Source of the DNA: a virus
Virus record (IMG/VR): IMGVR_UViG_3300045988_077137
Direction: 5' to 3' (one strand)
Length of the DNA: 64,000 bases
Under the pieces are notes generated by a model that did no database searches, was not told the origin of the DNA, and saw nothing but the letters and a program-made list of their open reading frames with translations. Shown here in pieces: positions 3,224 to 40,395 of the stretch. Position 1 is the first letter of the stretch, and each line of letters starts with the position of its first letter. Made by a program: the position numbers and the translations under genes.

Positions 3224-4972
3224 TCATTTTCTTATTCCTAATTGTGAATCAATGAACTCCAAAGCCTTTCCGAGAATAGGGTTCTCCATAGACTTTTCAA
3301 CCATCATCGCCTGTATAGCCTCTTCCGCTGTTTTAGGTGAGTCGTTCCCTTCTTCGCCATCGACGATTTCGTTCATACCCTCACCACCCATCATTTTGTT
3401 GCTCTGAGCCGACTGATACACCGTGTTAAGGATAGTGTCCTTATTCGGGTCGAACTTTCTGCCTGAATACTTTTCGAACATATCCTCAAGCGATACAAAG
3501 CCAGCCTCAGACTTCTTCTTATCCAGTTCAACCTGTGCTGCCTCGTCCTCAATTTCAATACCTGTAAACACGAGTTCCAAGCGGTCGTCAATTTCACTGA
3601 TGATATACTTATTCAGGATATTCTGATAGAACACTAACAGCGGAGTCAGACCTTTCTGTTTAGAGTGGTCAAGACGTTCCTTCTGTCCTTCCTGTCCAAA
3701 TATACGGGCAGCGTCCTGGAATTGAAAGCCCAACTCCGATGGGTCCATACGGTACACGGCACACGCAATCACCAATAGGAATTTAATCCATTCAGTGAAC
3801 TCCATGTCTCGGTTCGTCTGCTGTAAATCAATCCACTCAAGGTCTATCCCCTGAATGACGGGTATCTTGTGAGAATTGTACACGGTACTCATCGTCTGTT
3901 TCCAATCCTGACGAAACTCGTTCAGGGTTCCTTGGTCGACGTTTCCGTTCTTCACATTGATAAAGCCTTTCGGCTGACTACCTTGTTTGAAGAAGTTACC
4001 ATTGTACTGCATTCCCCACAAAATCCATGTCACGATTTCAATCAGCGTTTCCAACTCCGAACAGCCGTATCCATTACGCAACACGTTGGTCGTCTTGTTA
4101 CGGATACCATAACCCAACTCCCACGGATAGAAAACTACATACTCATCTGATACAGGGTGGCGGATAATCTGCCCATCCCATACCATAGCATAGCGAGGCA
4201 AATAACCATGCCAGCGGAAGTTCTCGAACATCTGTCTGTATCGTGGGTCGTTTGTGTCTAACTGTCGTATCAGGGCAGCGTCAACAGCACGATACTTCTT
4301 GAGGTTCATGTTCCTTGCACGAACGAGTTCAAATGTCATCTGGTCAAGCACAAGGGAGTCCCTCAATACTTTACGGGTAAACTCTTGAAAGTTGTCCTCG
4401 CATTCCCATTTGTCATTCTCGCCACCGTCTTCAAGGAAACGAACTATGTAATCGACAATCTTCTTGTCCTTTGCCGACAGCTCCTTTTCATCGGAACCCT
4501 CTGACCCTGGACTTCGTTTGTAGCGAATTTGGTATCCTGGTTTCTGGTCGTCAACGCTGTACTTCAGAAAGTTCTGAACCTGTTCGATACGTGTGTTGAT
4601 GATAGCCTTAATGATAAAGATATCGCCCATTCGGTTCAGAGTTCCAAATGCTATACCGTTGTTCGGGTCGCGATATCCCTTACCATTGAAGCCTATCTCC
4701 GACGGGTTCCAAAGGATTGATTTAATTTCCGGCTGGGGTGCTCTCCTGCTGTTCTTTTGTTGCTCAGCGATAAACGCTTGTGCCTTCATCACCTCTTCAA
4801 AATTCTCTGAATTTAGGGACTTCTGAAGACGGTTCCTCAACGCTATCGGAGCAGCCTGAGCCATGATTTGGAGTTCCTGAAGAGACAGTCCATCAAGACC
4901 GTCTATGGGAGCCTGATTATTGGCTCCCACTGAACTCCTGTTTTTTGATGAACGGTTCTTCTTACTTCCCAT
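3224..4972 (-). CDS. Putative portal protein
   Basis: 582-aa ORF immediately upstream of the MuF-like gene. Size and position are typical of portals. No motif-level proof. Confidence 0.55.
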   Translation of the reverse strand: MGSKKNRSSKNRSSVGANNQAPIDGLDGLSLQELQIMAQAAPIALRNRLQKSLNSENFEEVMKAQAFIAEQQKNSRRAPQPEIKSILWNPSEIGFNGKGYRDPNNGIAFGTLNRMGDIFIIKAIINTRIEQVQNFLKYSVDDQKPGYQIRYKRSPGSEGSDEKELSAKDKKIVDYIVRFLEDGGENDKWECEDNFQEFTRKVLRDSLVLDQMTFELVRARNMNLKKYRAVDAALIRQLDTNDPRYRQMFENFRWHGYLPRYAMVWDGQIIRHPVSDEYVVFYPWELGYGIRNKTTNVLRNGYGCSELETLIEIVTWILWGMQYNGNFFKQGSQPKGFINVKNGNVDQGTLNEFRQDWKQTMSTVYNSHKIPVIQGIDLEWIDLQQTNRDMEFTEWIKFLLVIACAVYRMDPSELGFQFQDAARIFGQEGQKERLDHSKQKGLTPLLVFYQNILNKYIISEIDDRLELVFTGIEIEDEAAQVELDKKKSEAGFVSLEDMFEKYSGRKFDPNKDTILNTVYQSAQSNKMMGGEGMNEIVDGEEGNDSPKTAEEAIQAMMVEKSMENPILGKALEFIDSQLGIRK

Positions 4973-10444: not shown

Positions 10445-10749
10445 TGAAGAAACTGATATTCCTTTTCTTGACATTGCTGATTGTAGGCTGTGCGACAACT
10501 CGGAAGACTGTGTTCTTCGAAAGAGTGACTCCACAGCCTCTTTCAGTAATTGACAGCCTGAACACCGTTCACGGCTTGAGCGTCCCTACGAATTTAGATT
10601 CGTGGGGAAAGACGTACTTCATCGGGAGCGATTCCGTGATGACCACTGTGTATGTCCTTACTGAAAAGAAGGGTAAAGTTCTGTATATCTTTTCAGTCAC
10701 ACAAACGGCTGGAAAGGATAATGTTCTATTCAAATTTAGGCAAGAATGA
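10444..10749 (+). CDS. Lipoprotein
   Basis: 101 aa. MKKLIFLFLTLLIVGC is a signal peptide plus lipobox Cys. The start overlaps the previous stop (ATGA). Confidence 0.6.
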   Translation: MKKLIFLFLTLLIVGCATTRKTVFFERVTPQPLSVIDSLNTVHGLSVPTNLDSWGKTYFIGSDSVMTTVYVLTEKKGKVLYIFSVTQTAGKDNVLFKFRQE

Positions 10750-11327
10750 TAACGAAAGGACTTGGATTTATTGAGAGTGGCGTCAATCCGAATGATGCCA
10801 CTTATGCTGCTCCGAAGATTGAACTTCCGAAGCGGTATGAACTGCGGGAACAACTTCGTGTCTATGACCAAGGCAGTAAAGGAAGTTGCGTGTCCTGTAC
10901 AGTTGCGGAAATGTACAACTTCTATTGCAAATCGAAAGGTCGTGAACCGTCTATCGGCTTTGAATACCTGTACGACCAGCGTTCTGACAAGACTATTGAC
11001 GGAATGATGCCTCGTGAGGCTTTCGAAATTTTGAAAGGTGAACACCGTGTCGAAGTATTCGCCCGTATTGGCTCTCTGGACGCTCTCAAAAAGAGTGTTC
11101 TTACCAATGGGGCAGCACTTATAGCGATGAATGTATTTTCGTATAATGACGACTTTTGGAACGGTGATGAGTTCATGGGTGGTCACGCAGTAGCGGTTGT
11201 TGGCTATGACGAAACAGGTCTCATCATCAAAAACTCCTGGGGAACATCGTTTGGTCGGGGTGGTTACACTACTCTTCCATACAGTCAGTTCAACAAAGTT
11301 CGTGAGGCTTGGACACTTCTGTCTTAA
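10746..11327 (+). CDS. Papain-like cysteine peptidase (C1 family)
   Basis: 193 aa. Catalytic-region motifs are QGSKGSCVSC (Cys), GGHAVAVVGYD (His) and IKNSWGTSFGRGGY (Asn-Ser-Trp-Gly). Confidence 0.8.
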   Translation: MITKGLGFIESGVNPNDATYAAPKIELPKRYELREQLRVYDQGSKGSCVSCTVAEMYNFYCKSKGREPSIGFEYLYDQRSDKTIDGMMPREAFEILKGEHRVEVFARIGSLDALKKSVLTNGAALIAMNVFSYNDDFWNGDEFMGGHAVAVVGYDETGLIIKNSWGTSFGRGGYTTLPYSQFNKVREAWTLLS

Positions 11328-11349
11328 ACCTGTTTCCTCCCTAATCATT

Positions 11350-14314: not shown

Positions 14315-14828
14315 CTATTTGGACATTCTAACAGCCAATGTTCCGTTGAAGTATAGTTCAACTTTCATAGTTTGTGGTTCATTTGGAAGTTCGTTTTTCC
14401 AATTTTCAAGGATGTTAGGAATCCAAACAAGACCATCCTTTGAAAAGGTATCATCTCCTAAGGATTCTCCAATACCAAACTCATCAAAATACTTTGCCGT
14501 GACGCTTGTAATTACGGAGAATGGATTGAATACCTTTAATTCGAAATGAGTGTCCTGCCATTGAAGAGGGATAACAAATATCCCGTTCTCAACTTTGTAA
14601 CCAGAATTGGCGGAGTCTTCAAAATTACACAGGTTGGATAAGATGTGGTAAACGAAAGCAGGGTCTTGGATAGCAGTTACGGCTCTACTCAGACCCCCCC
14701 CCCTGTGGCGGAGAAATTGATGGTTGTAGAACGTTCTTTTGCAAGAAGATTAGGGTCAGCAACGGCACTTACTGAAGCCGTACCCCCCCCCCAGACTCGG
14801 GAGTGATAGTAAGAAAATCTTTCTTCAT
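14315..14828 (-). CDS. BACON-like family paralog P1, reading frame broken at two G10 runs
   Basis: ATG at 14828 opens MKKDFLTITPES. Adding one G in each run gives GGGGTASVSAVADPNLLAKERSTTINFSATGGGGLSRAVTAIQDPAF... through to TAG at 14315-14317. The 3' frame is open for 144 codons (14318-14749) with no ATG in its first 127 codons. Confidence 0.7.
14694..14703. repeat. C10/G10 homopolymer (second tract of P1)
   Basis: Counted directly. As written the frame reads GTC TGA right after the tract. Confidence 0.95.
14783..14792. repeat. C10/G10 homopolymer (first tract of P1)
   Basis: Counted directly. As written the frame reads GTA CGG CTT CAG TAA after the tract. Confidence 0.95.
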
Positions 14829-14955
14829 AATTTTACTTTTAATGATTGAAACGAAATTATTTATGCTATTGACGTCAATTATAGCCGATTTAGGAAGTTA
14901 TAAGTATGCCCCGAACAAATTGTCCGGAGCACACCTTTGATTGCCGTGTAGAGCC

Positions 14956-18821: not shown

Positions 18822-19488
18822 CTATGTAAAGTCGAACTCTGCCACGCATACAAACTGACCTTGGTACCGTGGGTCGCCAAGATAAAATCTGACGTATTGA
18901 AGAACGTGATACTCATAAGAAAACTTCTTCGCATTAGACATCCTCAAATAATGAGCCGTAAAGTTTGGAATTCCTGGGTCTTCAGCGTCACTCTGAACAA
19001 TATCAAAATATTGCTTCGTTCCTGCTCCAGGTCTATCCTTGTAAACAGTTTCCATAAAAACACCATTGTTCCACGGCTCTGGCCATACGTTTTCGAAGGA
19101 ATCAGCAAGTAGAAGAGCACCTCTCGTTACCCAATATGTATCAGAACTTTCAGATACCGAAGGGAGTTGAGCGTTCATTTTTACGGAAAGATACCTGATT
19201 CCAGGTTCATAACCATTATCGTTCTGAAGTGAAGTCGTTGAGAACCCTACTGCATTGAACGAAAGCGTCACACTTCCGTTCCAATTGTCAGCAAGTGAAG
19301 TAAGACCCACGACAGGCATAAGCGGTATGCCATCTTGATTAACGGTTATCGCTCGGGATACCCCCCAGCGGAGAAGTTCAGCGTCGTCGAACGAGACTGA
19401 AGTGTTGAATTGGGGTCAGCAACCACGTTCACTTGGGTCGTACCCCCCCCCCAGTATCAGGGGAAACAGTAATGAAATCCTTTTTCAT
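18822..19488 (-). CDS. BACON-like family paralog P2, reading frame broken at a G10 and a G6 run
   Basis: ATG at 19488 opens MKKDFITVSPDT. Adding one G in each run gives GGGGTTQVNVVADPNSTLQSRSTTLNFSAGGVSRAITVNQDGIPL, which joins the listed ORF MPVVGLTSLADNW... (18822-19319). Confidence 0.7.
19361..19366. repeat. C6/G6 homopolymer (second tract of P2)
   Basis: Counted directly. As written the frame reads GGG GGG TAT CCC GAG CGA TAA. Confidence 0.95.
19443..19452. repeat. C10/G10 homopolymer (first tract of P2)
   Basis: Counted directly. As written the frame reads GTA CGA CCC AAG TGA. Confidence 0.95.
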
Positions 19489-19575: not shown

Positions 19576-19878
19576 TTATTTCTTCCGTCGATGAGTTTTT
19601 CGAGCCTTGCTTTTCTTCCTGTCCTTGCGGATTTGCTTCTCGCTCCTGCCATGTCTCGAACCACCCTTTCCAAACCGTACAGGCTCGCACCATTCAATGT
19701 TAGGAATCTCAGGTCGTGAATGAATAGTGTACACCCTTTCTTCAAATTGAGGAATATCAGTAGGTGAGTAATCCTTGTCAAGTTCTACAATCTCAACATT
19801 TGCTTCCTCAGTCATTCTAAGAACTTCTGGAGGAAGTGCCTTTGTTCCGGCTCCGATGATACCTATCTTATTCATCAA
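19576..19878 (-). CDS. Hypothetical protein with a basic C-terminal tail
   Basis: 100-aa ORF. Confidence 0.5.
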   Translation of the reverse strand: MMNKIGIIGAGTKALPPEVLRMTEEANVEIVELDKDYSPTDIPQFEERVYTIHSRPEIPNIEWCEPVRFGKGGSRHGRSEKQIRKDRKKSKARKTHRRKK

Positions 19879-20372
19879 TACCTCTTCTCTTCTCCAATAA
19901 TTAACATGACCCCATTCTTCATTGAATCAACAATAAGATATCCTCCCTTAATTTGGTCAGCACCTTTAAGGTACGACAGCACCAAACCTCTCTCAAGTGC
20001 GAGCGAGCGAACCTTTTCAGATATTTTCAGGGGAATTGTATTATCTTGACTATTGACAATCGTTATGAGAACCGCAACACCTCCATCTCGGTCATAGCCT
20101 GTAATTGAATAAGCTGTGCCATCTTTAAGATGAGCATCTGAACAGTATAAAATCTGTCCAGCGTATTCAGAAGTTCGAGGTTCAAGACCTTCCTTTTGAG
20201 CAAGTTCATTGATTGACACTTGTAAATCCTTTGGATGAATAGCATTCAATCTGTTCTGATACTCGGTGATAGAACTCACCGACAGTTCTATGAGTGTGTC
20301 ATGACTGACACGTGTGCCGCACCCTGTAAGTAGGAGTGCAAACACGGCTGTAATAATCATCAATCTTTTCAT
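19875..20372 (-). CDS. Lipoprotein
   Basis: 165 aa. MKRLMIITAVFALLLTGC is a signal peptide plus lipobox. Confidence 0.6.
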   Translation of the reverse strand: MKRLMIITAVFALLLTGCGTRVSHDTLIELSVSSITEYQNRLNAIHPKDLQVSINELAQKEGLEPRTSEYAGQILYCSDAHLKDGTAYSITGYDRDGGVAVLITIVNSQDNTIPLKISEKVRSLALERGLVLSYLKGADQIKGGYLIVDSMKNGVMLIIGEEKRY

Positions 20373-20746
20373 ATCCGATATATTTCTTCGTTCAACATTT
20401 TTCTATCAAAGGGGTTGGCGTCAATCTTGACATTCTGCCTGTCAAACTGTCGTAGGAAAGCAGAAATCTCCCTGATACTTCTTTGGTCGAGGTCAACGAA
20501 TTTAATGTAGTCCGTCTTCCCACCCTGTAAGGATACGACAGCCCATGAGCCTGAATGGTGATGAACGTCAACGGAAACATCGATGTTCCCCAGGAGTTGT
20601 CTGATACGTTCAGCACGAACCTCAGCCTCTGAGGTCGCACACTTCTGGCGGTGGATTAACCCTTTCAAGTCCCGTTCCAACGCTTCCATTCTTTGAAAGT
20701 CTTCCTTGAATAAGTATAGGAACAGTTTCCTCAATAGTTTCTTCAT
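20369..20746 (-). CDS. Hypothetical protein
   Basis: 125-aa ORF with a 4-nt overlap on both sides. Confidence 0.5.
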   Translation of the reverse strand: MKKLLRKLFLYLFKEDFQRMEALERDLKGLIHRQKCATSEAEVRAERIRQLLGNIDVSVDVHHHSGSWAVVSLQGGKTDYIKFVDLDQRSIREISAFLRQFDRQNVKIDANPFDRKMLNEEIYRI

Positions 20747-21504
20747 GATTCTTTCTTGGTTTTATTGTTTACACCGTACCCAAACAGGGCATAATCACAT
20801 TTACAGGGGTCTAACGGATAGACATTGCGGCAATTCGTAGTAAGTTCAAGCACTGTATTCATGCTATCGCCTTTGCCCGTTATGAGACCCAATTGACGAC
20901 CAACGGTTGCGACGTGAGTGTCAAGCGGAATGAGTAGGGACGACTGGGGAATGAAACTCCAGATACCTAAATCCACAGGACTGTTTCGACGGCACATCCA
21001 TCGTAGGAACATATTCAACCGCTTACAGGCAGACTTCGAATCCTGGGAGATACCTTTCACTCCAGGGAACAGGCTTATCAGCGCATCGAGATAATCTGTG
21101 GCTCCCATCGTACGAGTATAGTTCTTAGACAGAGCCTCTTCCATATCTTCGTTGTTATCATAAATCTCCTTGAGCGCACGACACAGGTCAGCGAAGTCCT
21201 TCTCCTTGAAGAAACGGTACAGAGGTTCCTCCGAGTCAATGTACTTTCGCCAACCCATGTTCTTGATATACATATAGGGAGTCAGACGTTCCATCTCCTT
21301 ACATAGTTTCTCACAGGTAGAAAGAATAGCTTTCCTGTTCCCATACGCTAACCAAGCAGCGATGAAGCCTACTATTTCCTGAGAACACTTGTATCCGAAC
21401 CGTCTGGGGAACTGTACAGGGTCGTCAGTAATGAATTCAGGCTTCTCGTACTGCTCAGCCAGTTTCATGACCTGATGTCTTAATTTGTCGCTGATTGCTA
21501 TCAT
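20743..21504 (-). CDS. TIGR02757/DUF2400-like protein
   Basis: 253 aa. PEFITDDPVQFPRRF and FIAAWLAYGNRK resemble that Bacteroidota-common family. This is from memory only. Confidence 0.4.
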   Translation of the reverse strand: MIAISDKLRHQVMKLAEQYEKPEFITDDPVQFPRRFGYKCSQEIVGFIAAWLAYGNRKAILSTCEKLCKEMERLTPYMYIKNMGWRKYIDSEEPLYRFFKEKDFADLCRALKEIYDNNEDMEEALSKNYTRTMGATDYLDALISLFPGVKGISQDSKSACKRLNMFLRWMCRRNSPVDLGIWSFIPQSSLLIPLDTHVATVGRQLGLITGKGDSMNTVLELTTNCRNVYPLDPCKCDYALFGYGVNNKTKKES

Positions 21505-33333: not shown

Positions 33334-33945
33334 TTATTTGTGAAGGACGTCATCGTATGCCTGCAACTCTATAAGTTCAATGAGGTCTCGCTTCGCTCTA
33401 TGCATAGCGTTCTTGACCTGTTGAAGAGTGAACCCCAGTTCATCAGCCATTTCTTCGTAGGTGAAGTCATCAAAGAACCGCATCTGAATAACCCGTCTTG
33501 ATGTCGACGGCATCTTCTGCATAACGCTCTTTACATATTCTATTCGCTGATTGAACGACAGGGATTCTTCAGGTGTACGGCTGTCGTCTATTACTTGTAA
33601 CGTAGGTCGGTCATCCTCGGTATCGTCGAACCCCTCATCAATGCTGACGATATTCACTCGGTTCTTCTTACGACAATAGTCTATCGCACAGTTCCTACCG
33701 ATACGGACTAACCACGCACTCAATTGATAGTCTGGTTGGAAGCGTTCCAACCGCTCAAAAGCCTTTTCGAATGTTTCCATTACGATGTCGGCTGTTAAAT
33801 CTTTGTCATTGATAATCTCACCAATCTGTATAGTGAGGATAACATTGTACTTCTTGAATATCGTTGTAAAGGCATCCTGGTCGCCACATAAGGCTCTTTG
33901 AACCAGACCGAAGTCCTTCTCGCGATGTGATGTTTTCTTTCTCAT
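33334..33945 (-). CDS. ECF-type sigma-70 family RNA polymerase sigma factor
   Basis: 203 aa. Region 2 is DIVMETFEKAFERLERFQPDYQLSAWLVRIGRNCAIDYCRKK. Region 4 is RRVIQMRFFDDFTYEEMADELGFTLQQVKNAMHRAKRDL. Confidence 0.85.
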   Translation of the reverse strand: MRKKTSHREKDFGLVQRALCGDQDAFTTIFKKYNVILTIQIGEIINDKDLTADIVMETFEKAFERLERFQPDYQLSAWLVRIGRNCAIDYCRKKNRVNIVSIDEGFDDTEDDRPTLQVIDDSRTPEESLSFNQRIEYVKSVMQKMPSTSRRVIQMRFFDDFTYEEMADELGFTLQQVKNAMHRAKRDLIELIELQAYDDVLHK

Positions 33946-35010: not shown

Positions 35011-35496
35011 ATGATTAAGACTGGTTTAACTGAAGAGGAACTCGAACGTAGTGCCCTCTTGCTGAATGGTTTACTTGCTGACCACTTCACGCTTATGCTG
35101 AAGACTTGGCAGTTTCATTGGAATGTCGTAGGAGACTCGTTTGGTTCCTATCACGAGGCTATGCTGAAACTCTACGAAGAAGAAATTGAACGTGTTGATG
35201 ATGTTGCTGAACGTGTCCGTGCTCTTGGCAAACGTCCGCTGGGTTCTATGGAAGCAATGTTACAGAACAACCACATCAAGGAATTCGGTATGAGCGAAGC
35301 TGTTCCACAGGCTCTTGACATGTGGAAAATCATTCGTGACGACTGGGATAAGTTGATACGCTCTATCAGAGACATTCACAAACAAATCCCCGAGAATGAC
35401 CTTGCTACTCTTAACTTCCTTGAGGACATGATTGAAAGCATGGAAAAGGAAGCGTGGATAGTGCGTTCTTACAATGTTACTCCGACAGGTATTTAG
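35011..35496 (+). CDS. dps: Dps-family ferritin-like DNA-protection protein
   Basis: 161 aa. LNGLLADHFTLMLKTWQFHWNVVGDSFGSYHEAMLKLYEEEIERVDDVAERVRALG is a Dps signature. Confidence 0.85.
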   Translation: MIKTGLTEEELERSALLLNGLLADHFTLMLKTWQFHWNVVGDSFGSYHEAMLKLYEEEIERVDDVAERVRALGKRPLGSMEAMLQNNHIKEFGMSEAVPQALDMWKIIRDDWDKLIRSIRDIHKQIPENDLATLNFLEDMIESMEKEAWIVRSYNVTPTGI

Positions 35497-35522
35497 AAGC
35501 CTGTACACAGGTAAACAAAACA

Positions 35523-35544
35523 GGGTGAGTCTTTCGGCTCACCC
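35523..35544. terminator. Bidirectional hairpin terminator
   Basis: GGGTGAG..TTTC..CTCACCC followed by TTTCTTTTT, between the convergent dps and P3. Confidence 0.65.
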
Positions 35545-35551
35545 TTTCTTT

Positions 35552-36099
35552 TTACGAATATCGAACTGTTCCTGATACTCTCAATGTATCTCCCGGAGAT
35601 ATTGTTATAGTTGAAAATCTAACTTCTTGCTGAAAAGTGAATGTTCCCTTGACTAAAGTTTGTCCATTTAGCGTGATGTCAATACTTTCATTCTTTCCAG
35701 ATGAAATAATTAGGTTGCATTTGTTTGTCGTGAACGTCCGACTCCCTGTCCATTGAACTTCCCCAGATATCTGTTCAGTATTTTTCTCGCCTGAATTCAT
35801 TGGATACAGCCTTTCACACAAACTGATATATTCGCTTTCGTTGTTTGTATTTATCAGCCTTAAATAAAGTCTTGACGTTACCTGTTCATAAAGCAAATTG
35901 TTAAACTGAATAGAACCTGTTTTAGACGCTGTAAAACGTCCTTGAGCCTGACTAACTTCAATGGTTCTTGTCATCCCCCCCCCCCCGAAATGGTTATCGT
36001 GGTAGAGCGAGCATCACCATAATTGGCTCCTGCCTGAACGGTCACTTCCTGTGACCTCCCCCCAGAGTCTGGGGTGATTGTCAAAAAGTCTTTTTGCAT
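35552..36099 (-). CDS. BACON-like family paralog P3, reading frame broken at a G12 run
   Basis: ATG at 36099 opens MQKDFLTITPDSGGRSQEVTVQAGANYGDARSTTITIS, followed by G12. As written the frame reads GGA TGA. One extra G joins it to the listed ORF MTRTIEVSQAQGRF... (35552-35974). Confidence 0.7.
35975..35986. repeat. C12/G12 homopolymer in P3
   Basis: Counted directly. A further in-frame G6 lies at 36058-36063. Confidence 0.95.
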
Positions 36100-36129
36100 A
36101 ATCTTTGAAATTAAATTGTTAAACGAAAT

Positions 36130-36471
36130 TTATTTATGATTGCTTCGAAGCCTTATGTATTTCCACCACGCATAGTGTTTACGGGTCTTGAGATAGTCAG
36201 GGTTCTCATCATTATTGTGAGCCTCTTCCTCAAGACTGATATCGTGATATGCGCAGTTCTGTTTCTTGTGGAACAGCCTGATGAGTAGGTACTCAACCCC
36301 ATACCACAGGTAGAAGAACACCCAGAGCATCTCCTTCATTTGAGCCGTGTGTATCGACTCGTGCGTGATTGTTGACTCCGGTAACTGTTTACGCTTGGTA
36401 AACAGTATTCCGAAGAAGTTCAACGTATGATAATTCCCAAACGGGAACCATGTGTTATAAACTATTTTCAT
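36130..36471 (-). CDS. Hydrophobic protein with an HExxH motif
   Basis: 113 aa. THESIHTAQ suggests a possible Zn-peptidase-like site, followed by a hydrophobic stretch. Confidence 0.35.
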   Translation of the reverse strand: MKIVYNTWFPFGNYHTLNFFGILFTKRKQLPESTITHESIHTAQMKEMLWVFFYLWYGVEYLLIRLFHKKQNCAYHDISLEEEAHNNDENPDYLKTRKHYAWWKYIRLRSNHK

Positions 36472-38775: not shown

Positions 38776-40395
38776 CTACTTTTTATTTGGTTCATTATTT
38801 GCGGACATAGCACAAGACGTATTCAGGAACTGAATAGCGACTGAAACAGAGTTTTCCAGGGACACTCTTGACACTTTCGCAGGGTCAATGATTCCTGCCT
38901 CAAACATATCTTCTATCTTCTCAGTAACAGGGTTGAAGCCTTTCCACCACATCGGGTCGTCGTTGTTTGTCAGGTCAACTTCAATACGGGTTGCGTTCAC
39001 AGCAGCATTCTCACACAACTGATTGAACGGAGCCATCAACGCTTGAGCAACTACATTCCAACCGATAATGAAGTCAGGATGTTCTTCATGAAGTGAAGGC
39101 ATATTGCGTAGGTGGTCTGACGCTCTCAACTGAACCGTACCGCCTCCGGGAACGTATCCCTCTTCCAACGCTGCCCGAGTTGCGGCAATAGCATCGTCAA
39201 CACGGTCTTTTCTTTCCTTCATCTCTACCTCACTGTCCGCACCTACATAAACGACGGCTGCTCCCCCTGTAAGTTTCGAAATACGTTCACGATACTTCTC
39301 TTGGTCGTAAGAGTTCGTATTCTCCTCCATTAGATGTTTAATAGCCTCTACTCTGGTATTTATATCGGCTTCCGTACCAACGCCTCCTACGAGGATTGTA
39401 CGATTAGTAGAAACGACTGTACGTTCACACTCGCCCAGCCAGTCTGTACCGAGTTGGTCAAGCGGACGTCCAAACTCATCGCCTACCACCTTTGCGCCTA
39501 CCTTAACAGCCAAGTCCTCTATCATGTCCTTCTGGATTTGACCATATCCGGGAGCCTTTACGAAACAGGCTTTCAACCCGTTCTGCTGCTGAATGTTTGT
39601 CACGAGGAACTTGATAACGTCATTAGACGCATTAGGAGCAACGATAAGAACGCTGCGTTTCGCTGAATAAACTGTCTGAATGATAGGAAGGATTTCCTGG
39701 GGATAGTTGATGTTCTGTCCGAAGATGAGAATATACGGCTTATCAAGCACGCATTCCATACGCTCTGGGTCTGTAACGAAGTACGGGTTCACCAAGCCTT
39801 TCTCCCACTGAAAACCTGTGGTCACTTCGACTGTGGTTTCATTTCCCTTGCTGCTTTCCTCAACCGTAATCACTCCGTCGTTTCCTACCTTTCCGATAGC
39901 CTCCGAAATGATACAACCAACCTCCACATCACCGTTTGCGCTGATAGTGGCAATCTGATTTACACGGTCGAACTCGGTCTCACCAATTTCCTTCGCCATC
40001 GCTTTAATGAACGAAACGGCTTCCGAACGAGCAGCCTCCATTCCTTCTTTGAAACGCTGTGGATTCTTGACATTAGGAAGAACATTCATTCCCTCTTTGA
40101 TGAGCGCACGGGTGAGGATTGTGGCTGTGGTCGTACCGTCACCAGCCTCGTCACAGGTCTTTGCCGCAACGGTCTTAACAAGCGTTGCTCCCATACGTTT
40201 CATTGGGTCGTCGGTATCGTACGCACGGGCAACTGTTACACCATCTTTCGTGATGTGAGGAATGCCATACCCTTTGTCAATGATTACTGAATGTCCCTTC
40301 GGACCGAGAGTAGAAGATACTGCATTAGCGAGTTCATCAATTCCTTCGAAAAGAGCCTCTTGAGCAGATTTGTTGAATAAAATCTTTACATTCAT
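38776..40395 (-). CDS. groL: Chaperonin GroEL (Cpn60)
   Basis: 539 aa. LGPKGHSVIIDK, AKTCDEAGDGTTTATILTRAL and VGADSEVEMKERKDRVDDA are classic Cpn60 motifs. Confidence 0.95.
   Translation of the reverse strand: MNVKILFNKSAQEALFEGIDELANAVSSTLGPKGHSVIIDKGYGIPHITKDGVTVARAYDTDDPMKRMGATLVKTVAAKTCDEAGDGTTTATILTRALIKEGMNVLPNVKNPQRFKEGMEAARSEAVSFIKAMAKEIGETEFDRVNQIATISANGDVEVGCIISEAIGKVGNDGVITVEESSKGNETTVEVTTGFQWEKGLVNPYFVTDPERMECVLDKPYILIFGQNINYPQEILPIIQTVYSAKRSVLIVAPNASNDVIKFLVTNIQQQNGLKACFVKAPGYGQIQKDMIEDLAVKVGAKVVGDEFGRPLDQLGTDWLGECERTVVSTNRTILVGGVGTEADINTRVEAIKHLMEENTNSYDQEKYRERISKLTGGAAVVYVGADSEVEMKERKDRVDDAIAATRAALEEGYVPGGGTVQLRASDHLRNMPSLHEEHPDFIIGWNVVAQALMAPFNQLCENAAVNATRIEVDLTNNDDPMWWKGFNPVTEKIEDMFEAGIIDPAKVSRVSLENSVSVAIQFLNTSCAMSANNEPNKK

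Follow-up and report, generated by a model that had tools for sequence, protein, structure and literature searches.

A BACON-Domain Gene Split at a Single G Tract

Two adjacent open reading frames (ORFs) of an uncultivated virus were found to be parts of a single gene, termed P3, which is broken at one run of twelve G residues, and poly-G tracts of this kind probably represent contingency loci that vary in length by replication slippage, as in Campylobacter phages. The stretch analyzed, referred to as the window in the following, comprises 64 kb of the IMG/VR record IMGVR_UViG_3300045988_077137. The whole BACON-module gene P3 occupies positions 35552–36099 on the minus strand and is split as assembled; it encodes 182 aa with a tract of G13 and 181 aa with G10. 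Its ATG at position 36099 begins MQKDFLTITPDSGGRSQEVTVQAGANYGDARSTTITISGGGG and opens a frame of 42 codons (35971–36099, minus strand), ending in TCG GGG GGG GGG GGA TGA, and the called product of this ORF represents a truncated BACON module matching PF13004. The C-terminal domain (MTRTIEV...) is encoded by a 140-aa ORF (35552–35974, minus strand) and is predicted to form an eight-strand beta sandwich. The start codons at 36099 and 35974 are 125 nt apart and out of phase. The G12 run between them (35975–35986, minus strand), designated tract 2, is out of frame and needs the gain of one or the loss of two G residues: in an enumeration of tract lengths, +1 G resulted in 182 aa and −2 G in 181 aa, and all other changes tried yielded at most 47 aa. 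Tract 1 (36055–36063, minus strand) reads GGGGGG-AGG, is in frame, and is interrupted, i.e., “locked”, with its G6 part at 36058–36063. An earlier note on this DNA had described the position of the G12 run, the spacing of the two ATG codons, the in-frame G6-AGG cluster, and the rank of G12 as the longest homopolymer within the 64-kb window, and all of these details were correct. A frame-setting homopolymer of at least approximately 7 nt within a coding sequence was taken as the mark of a contingency locus, and the G12 run of P3, located inside the BACON domain, is a homopolymer of this type.

The suggestion of the same note that both ORFs belong to one gene broken at G12 was supported by the BACON match of the repaired protein, which spans the tract, by a residue-for-residue alignment with the intact paralog P0 (...AGGGMTRTV..SQA), and by the occurrence of more than 120 orthologues as single ORFs. 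At a gathering cut-off of 25 bits for the Pfam family PF13004 (BACON), the repaired P3 protein achieved 35.7 bits over residues 4–52, the match running across the tract. Scores for the repaired paralogs P1 and P2 were 27.6 and 38.3 bits, respectively, again with matches across the tracts, and the intact P0 scored 24.5 bits, just under the cut-off. A search with the repaired P3 sequence retrieved 211 proteins, and the best 120 of these 211 were almost all full-length single ORFs of 179–182 aa. The same protein collection also contained broken forms, namely a 65-member cluster of products of exactly 140 aa and 19 N-terminal fragments that terminate in one or the other alternative frame (...GGYDKNH, ...GGVSLELSM, ...GGGG-stop). 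Truncated forms of 163, 157, and 134 aa were placed within full-length clusters.

The exact G count of the P3 tract in this assembly is uncertain to ±1, since the sister assemblies show G11-T and at least G13. The window's own strain is represented by three assemblies that are otherwise identical, featuring G12-ATG (window), G11-T-ATG (L102, JGI 3300014528), and at least G13 at a contig end (L103). L102 is otherwise identical over 3,423 nt, and its total length and frame are as in the window. The T directly after the tract is kept in every other relative, so that the twelfth G of the P3 tract reflects either a genuine T-to-G change or a miscall behind the homopolymer. When IMG/VR was scanned with an exact pattern of the G12 version, no matches were returned.

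In the G12 state, the 42-aa ORF stops at a TGA that shares bases with the ATG start codon of the 140-aa ORF (ATGA, window 35971–35974). Such a stop/start overlap is a classic termination–reinitiation arrangement, and the C-terminal domain alone might therefore still be produced. The same overlap was observed in relatives in which tract 2 is G8 or G11 followed by TATGA. The start Met of the 140-aa ORF is Ile in many orthologues, and the start is thus not conserved. Three gene states (fused, split, and off) are possible, as one out-of-frame phase has the ATGA overlap.

Three Paralogous Cassettes with Paired Tracts

P3 is one of three paralogous single-gene cassettes located at approximately 14.7 kb (P1), 19.4 kb (P2), and 36 kb (P3), the G runs of which fall on the same two glycine positions of the N-terminal BACON module. 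The P1 cassette (14315–14828, minus strand) would encode 171 aa and the P2 cassette (18822–19488, minus strand) 222 aa if both tracts in each gained one G; as written, both stop after 19 aa. Tract 1 (14783–14792) and tract 2 (14694–14703) of P1, as well as tract 1 of P2 (19443–19452), all on the minus strand, are G10 and need +1 or −2. Tract 2 of P2 (19361–19366, minus strand) is G6, out of frame, and needs +1, and orthologues possess G6–G10 at this site. Altogether, the five out-of-frame tracts in the window (two in P1, two in P2, and one in P3) all take a +1 correction. After restoration of the frame, P1, P2, and P3 feature a common N-terminal module of approximately 55 aa, and their C-terminal parts are unrelated. 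The paralog P0 (12411–13238, plus strand; 275 aa) has the same N-terminal module, is intact, and contains no homopolymer, its glycines being written in mixed codons (GGA GGA AGT GGT; GGT GGC GGG).

In the whole window, six G/C runs of at least 6 nt were detected, all of them being G on the minus strand and all located in P1, P2, or P3. They form three pairs, 82–89 nt apart, at homologous codons, each pair residing within the first approximately 130 nt of a small gene starting with MKKDF or MQKDF. Compared to a first-order Markov expectation for the 64 kb, C runs of at least 10 nt were strongly enriched (4 seen versus 0.025 expected), whereas T runs (8 versus 65) and A runs (1 versus 21.6) of at least 6 nt were depleted 8–20 fold. 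In 21 long ORFs belonging to other genes of the window (9,256 codons), GGG represented 16.7% of the Gly codons, and none of the 39 Gly-Gly pairs was encoded as GGG-GGG. The genome avoids homopolymers generally, yet long G runs are kept at exactly these glycine codons; conserved in position and opposed to both codon usage and background, the tracts show what is expected of runs maintained by selection. The avoidance of A/T homopolymers may reflect selection against slippage in a phage with slippage-prone replication.

Regarding the flanks of the cassettes, a bidirectional hairpin terminator (35522–35545) is common to P3 and the convergent Dps/ferritin gene, and terminator-like sequences consisting of a hairpin and a T run were read off by eye 3' of P1, P2, and P0. 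An upstream motif, CATAAATAA(A)TTTCGTTT, is common to P1 and P3 (window 14849–14858 and 36121–36130, minus strand), approximately 20–30 nt before the ATG, and a similar AT-rich leader (..AATTTCAA..AGATTATG) was noticed in all four paralogs. Motif and leader are statistically weak and could represent a promoter or a duplicated leader. The upstream 10-mer AATTTCGTTT of P1 and P3 was rejected as promoter evidence, its two matches versus 0.42 expected being weakly above chance (8 of 100 shuffles reached two).

Tract-Length Variation among Related Phages

To evaluate tract lengths among relatives, 112 related loci from IMG/VR, metagenome, and Logan/ENA/JGI assemblies were compared, representing 78 distinct gene copies. 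Tract lengths in these copies ranged between G5 and G14 with modes at G9 and G10, which together made up 70 of 131 tracts; G10 was out of frame in 32 of 35 cases. As assembled, 25 of the 78 gene copies were intact and 53 were broken. Among tracts of at least G7, 38 were in frame, 29 need +1, and 40 need −1, with similar proportions across three data sources. As relatives need +1, −1, or no correction in similar numbers, the uniform +1 observed in the window is not a rule.

Pairs of near-identical loci, i.e., those with no more than 8 mismatches in approximately 760 nt (≥99% identical) and with duplicates left out, differed in tract length in 13 out of 13 cases; for example, one pair with a single mismatch had [5,9] versus [10,10], and another had [14,9] versus [7,10]. 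In 57 near-identical pairs, 78 indels were located within G tracts, which account for approximately 2% of the alignment columns, and 80 elsewhere, many of the latter being tract-adjacent or originating from two divergent pairs. Genes with an identical 140-aa product possessed tract 1/tract 2 combinations of (10,7), (10,10), (7,7), (12,10), (≥12,11), and (≥10,10), and within one ENA study, tract 2 alternated between G10 and G11 on one haplotype. Between close genomes, the length of the tracts hence varies much faster than their flanks. Furthermore, at least nine contigs start or end inside a tract (L005, L046, L048, L056, L060, L091, L103, L109, and L112). Contig ends of this type reflect the behavior of de Bruijn assemblers when reads disagree, and within-population heterogeneity is only implied by these breaks and by the discordant assemblies. 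The idea, likewise put forward from the DNA letters, that the P3 tract acts as a switch is supported by the range of G5–G14 in relatives, the presence of both +1 and −1 out-of-frame states, the differences in all 13 near-identical pairs, and the contigs ending inside tracts.

Besides these length changes, some relatives displayed other alterations. In L006 (IMGVR_UViG_3300029581_000155), compared to L084, exactly the stretch of approximately 77 nt between tracts 1 and 2 is lost and a single G10 is left, with one mismatch elsewhere; the lost segment corresponds to window positions 35987–36057 and may have been deleted through mispairing of the two G runs or have collapsed during assembly. Besides tract changes, three IMG/VR loci, L003 (dataset 3300039328) as well as L004 and L032 (both dataset 3300045988), showed one-base indels in the A5 or T5 runs that directly follow the start codon (CAAAAGAC; GACTTTTTTGAC). 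These indels look like sequencing errors, and some contigs appear to be of lower homopolymer quality. Long poly-G stretches are difficult for short-read chemistry, and technical effects could underlie part of the tract-length scatter as well as the T/G difference at the tract end.

Selection on Broken and Intact Copies

In nearly all broken copies, a full-length ORF is regained when the tracts alone are corrected. For the C-terminal domain of P3, dN/dS values (Nei-Gojobori) of 0.42, 0.43, and 0.40 were obtained for broken–broken, broken–intact, and intact–intact comparisons, respectively, so purifying selection is equal on broken and intact copies and, together with the tract-only repair, indicates that the broken state is evolutionarily transient. 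Relaxed selection and further downstream lesions, the features of a pseudogene, were not found in the P3 family. The tracts are kept at the same codons in lineages down to approximately 45% protein identity and in the three paralogs. Approximately one-third of the tracts and 25 of 78 genes being in frame, the distribution looks like neutral drift of the frame rather than selection for the ON state. In genes with two tracts, two events are needed for switching on.

The first glycine cluster of P3 had been suspected to be a switch that was later fixed, and the orthologues bear this out: at this site they have G9, G10, G12, or G14, or the point-interrupted forms GGG-AGG-GGG and GGG-GAG-GGG. Overall, the tract 1 position in orthologues is occupied by G6–G14 or by GGGAGGGGG / GGGGAGGGG. 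In intact orthologues, residue 14, which belongs to tract 1, is G, R, E, or M, and these variants match the single-base interruptions GGG-AGG-GGG and GGG-GAG-GGG.

Alternative Explanations for the Broken Frames

If poly-G had been miscounted during sequencing or assembly, the true tract would be in frame (G13, G10, or G12-T) and the gene constitutively intact. It would fit this explanation that the window and its sister contig differ just at the 3' edge of the tract, G12-A versus G11-T, as is typical of a post-homopolymer miscall, that a third assembly has at least 13 G residues, that all five out-of-frame tracts in the window take the same +1, as systematic under-calling would give, and that a few related contigs (L003, L004, and L032) contain indels in A/T runs too. 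However, differences of 3–7 G residues between otherwise >99% identical genomes far exceed miscounts of ±1, relatives deviate from the frame in either direction whether the data come from JGI, ENA, Logan, or IMG/VR, and the long genes of the window are unbroken. Miscounting also leaves unexplained why the tracts occur solely, and contrary to codon usage, at a pair of homologous Gly positions in a single gene family; such an artefact, which we consider improbable, at most accounts for the exact count in the window (G12 versus G11-T), not for the phenomenon. Mutational fragility without function, in which the cassettes are dispensable morons being lost, the tracts are accidental, and the breaks represent the first step of pseudogenization, would agree with the 53 of 78 copies broken as assembled, the placement of the P genes among accessory genes, and the loss of the segment between the tracts in L006. 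Broken copies without further lesions and with the same dN/dS as intact ones (0.42) argue against it, as does the persistence of the tracts at the same codons to approximately 45% protein identity and in three paralogs, despite genome-wide homopolymer avoidance and the rarity of GGG, and this explanation is very improbable.

It has also to be considered that the frame is corrected at the RNA level: some in-frame product would arise from RNA polymerase slipping on the G run, or from ribosomes slipping by −1 on GGG-GGA ahead of the TGA, and selection would keep the length (approximately G10) and not the frame. Stop codons directly after a slippery site can favor P-site slippage (shifty stops), and in the window the P3 tract is directly followed by a 0-frame stop (GGA TGA); moreover, the five window tracts all need the same shift. 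In the relatives, frames look random and lengths are concentrated at G9–G10 (70 of 131 tracts), with G10 out of frame in 32 of 35 cases, and RNA slippage would explain why length is seemingly better conserved than frame. Nevertheless, the orthologues need +1, −1, and 0 in similar numbers and possess neither a fixed shift direction nor a conserved slippery context. The stop right after the tract is not conserved, as P1 and P2 stop four codons later, short tracts (G6, G7) are out of frame too, and the change in length is directly evident at the DNA level. One fixed shift direction in orthologues, as expected for programmed recoding, was hence not found (38 tracts in frame, 29 needing +1, and 40 needing −1), and many orthologues are plain single ORFs. 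Recoding in place of DNA switching is accordingly rated as unlikely; RNA-level slippage on G10–12 may add leaky expression on top of DNA switching, the two not being exclusive. The uniform +1 in the window had suggested programmed −1 recoding or systematic under-calling as a general explanation, and both were dismissed in this capacity, because relatives need +1, −1, and 0 about equally.

Structure and Possible Role of the P Proteins

An AlphaFold2 model was calculated for the orthologue P0001 (97% identical) from a 40-sequence alignment and was all-beta with a mean pLDDT of 80.7. In this model, the tract-2 glycines 39–41 form the turn between strands 32–39 and 42–51, and one Gly more or fewer in this predicted turn should be tolerated. 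Residues of approximately 70–180 were modeled as an eight-strand sandwich with block-mean pLDDT values mostly between 83 and 93. A Foldseek search of the model against the PDB and BFVD revealed no neighbor at E ≤ 1e-3, the best viral match being another gut-myovirus BACON protein (1.7e-3). Searches of PHROGs with P0–P3 gave nothing significant, tail proteins included.

Proteins of the P family are devoid of a signal peptide, as read directly off the sequence, and their genes are placed among accessory and replication genes, not in the tail module. By analogy, the combination of a conserved N-terminal module with C-terminal domains that vary recalls the anchor-plus-specificity layout known from adhesins and decoration proteins of phages. 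The tracts most likely switch on and off proteins that may be of a surface-binding type, with a putative role in host interaction.

A Model for Poly-G Switching and Comparison with Known Systems

According to the model of replication slippage at poly-G contingency loci, P3 is one gene in which an N-terminal BACON module precedes a variable beta-sandwich domain and beta-turn glycines are written as a long poly-G run, and such runs are kept at the same two glycine positions in the three self-contained cassettes P1, P2, and P3. During replication, slipped-strand mispairing would add G residues to the runs or remove them from the runs; gain and loss of this type are established for simple-sequence contingency loci. 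Each tract would thereby move reversibly among the three reading frames, and the gene would flip between a full-length and a truncated product. The consensus state in this assembly is OFF for all three genes, P3 being one G short of the fused frame. Tracts may become locked by point interruptions (AGG, GAG) or by synonymous recoding, as proposed for P0. As a consequence, the phage population would be mixed for up to eight combinations of P1/P2/P3 proteins, and this mixture might serve as a bet-hedge in interactions with the host or with gut surface glycans. Whereas the unity of the gene, the non-random and conserved placement of the tracts, their hypervariable length, and the equal selection on the downstream domain are shown by the comparisons described above, switching within the population, its rate, its adaptive purpose, and the role of the proteins are inferred. 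A more far-reaching interpretation is put forward tentatively: an abundant gut myovirus, probably of Bacteroidota, might possess a combinatorial switchboard of at least three BACON cassettes gated by one or two hypermutable poly-G tracts in glycine turns, so that each burst would release virions or lysates differing in their glycan-binding accessory proteins, as a counterpart to the phase-variable capsules of the hosts.

The closest phage parallel is provided by Campylobacter phages of the genus Fletchervirus, for which hypermutable G7–11 tracts in receptor-binding protein genes were described (Sorensen et al., Cell Rep 2021;35:109214, as cited in PMC12823448, 10.1101/2025.10.21.683753). Common to both systems are G runs (approximately 7–11 nt in Fletchervirus) inside coding phage genes, frame shifts caused by length changes, mixed phage populations (predicted for the present phage), several such genes per genome, and a host group with phase-variable surface polysaccharides. 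In contrast, the phage studied here belongs to another lineage and host phylum, its portal being closest to those of Bacteroides and Chryseobacterium phages, and its tracts are paired at two fixed glycine turns of a shared BACON module in paralogous small single-gene cassettes. Moreover, its products, known from sequence alone, are not demonstrated receptor-binding proteins and are not encoded in the tail module. The poly-G genes of Campylobacter jejuni likewise correspond to the system described here in tract type, modal length (G9–G10), three-phase ON/OFF logic, and the combination of independent loci, but here the tracts are virus-borne, replication is presumably accomplished by the phage's own machinery, and two tracts are arranged in series in one short domain. 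The concept of the bacterial simple-sequence contingency locus is said to go back to Moxon et al. in 1994.

For T2/T4 and other coliphages, contingency loci consisting of homopolymer repeats in ORFs were reported, with reversible frameshifts by polymerase slippage and bet-hedging (Gomez, Barrick & Waters, bioRxiv 10.1101/2025.10.21.683753). Frame-shifting homopolymer repeats in phage ORFs, read as bet-hedging, are thus shared with these phages; however, the repeats there are short (≥6 nt, mostly A/T) and scattered over all gene classes, whereas the present genome is depleted of such runs and features long G10–12 tracts in one gene family at homologous positions. Single (non-tandem) BACON domains were described in small gut-phage proteins encoded in replicative or head regions and not beside tail genes (de Jonge et al. 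2019, PMC6949934; Pfam PF13004 / PF19190). The genomic context of these genes matches that of the P genes, and the article by de Jonge et al. (PMC6949934) contains no occurrence of frameshift or poly-G. Full-text searches on BACON, phage, homopolymer/poly-G, Bacteroides, and phase variation revealed no report of this feature, and a switch embedded in a BACON domain appears to be undescribed in the literature searched. New aspects are the paired tracts at fixed glycine turns of the BACON module, the multi-copy cassette family along with a locked paralog, and the gut-virome setting.

Poly-G contingency loci in phages have been shown experimentally for Campylobacter phages only, and short homopolymer repeats lately for T-even and a few other cultured phages. 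Our results place the same device in a widespread human-gut phage, inside BACON-domain genes. If true, the switchboard would represent the first contingency-locus system reported from the gut virome and would offer a testable role for phage BACON domains; mixed tract lengths within each sample and ON fractions shifting with the capsule state of the host are predicted. In practical terms, P3-type genes are systematically mis-annotated as fragments of 42 aa and 140 aa, and poly-G tracts represent break points of gut-phage assemblies.

The Phage and Its Accessory Genes

The window encodes a portal protein, helicases, an NAD-dependent ligase, a ribonucleotide reductase, and an SbcC-like protein, as well as an ECF-type sigma factor, a Dps-like ferritin, and a PNK phosphatase. 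Neither megablast of the 34–38 kb region nor tblastn of P3 against 50,697 GenBank phage records yielded a match, and the phage is without a close cultured or deposited relative, distant hits being obtained from the portal only. This portal shares 52% identity with the portal of an uncultured phage from human faeces and approximately 34% with those of the Bacteroides thetaiotaomicron myoviruses DAC16-23 and SJC03 and of a Chryseobacterium phage. At 3,422 of the 3,423 positions compared, a JGI contig of 112,459 bp (3300014528) agrees with the window. Relatives originate from human-gut metagenomes with contigs of 100–114 kb, and the JGI, ENA, Logan, and NCBI assemblies with P3 orthologues number well over 100. 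The phage is an uncultivated human-gut myovirus of approximately 110–112 kb, probably with a Bacteroidota host. Membership in the Crassvirales, suggested by the BACON domain, was ruled out by the portal similarity to myoviruses.

Further genes identified in the window comprise a GroEL-like chaperonin of 539 aa (38776–40395, minus strand; judged from its sequence), the ECF-type sigma factor (33334–33945, minus strand), the Dps/ferritin-like protein (35011–35496, plus strand), a DUF2400 protein (20743–21504, minus strand), and a papain-family peptidase (10746–11327, plus strand), which represent an unusual accessory set for a phage of approximately 110 kb. A 259-aa ORF (10569–11348, minus strand) runs antisense to the papain-like peptidase gene and is probably spurious. 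Just upstream of P2, a 165-aa protein (19875–20372, minus strand) with a lipoprotein-type signal peptide (MKRLMIITAVFALLLTGC...) is encoded, possibly representing a phage-encoded surface lipoprotein.
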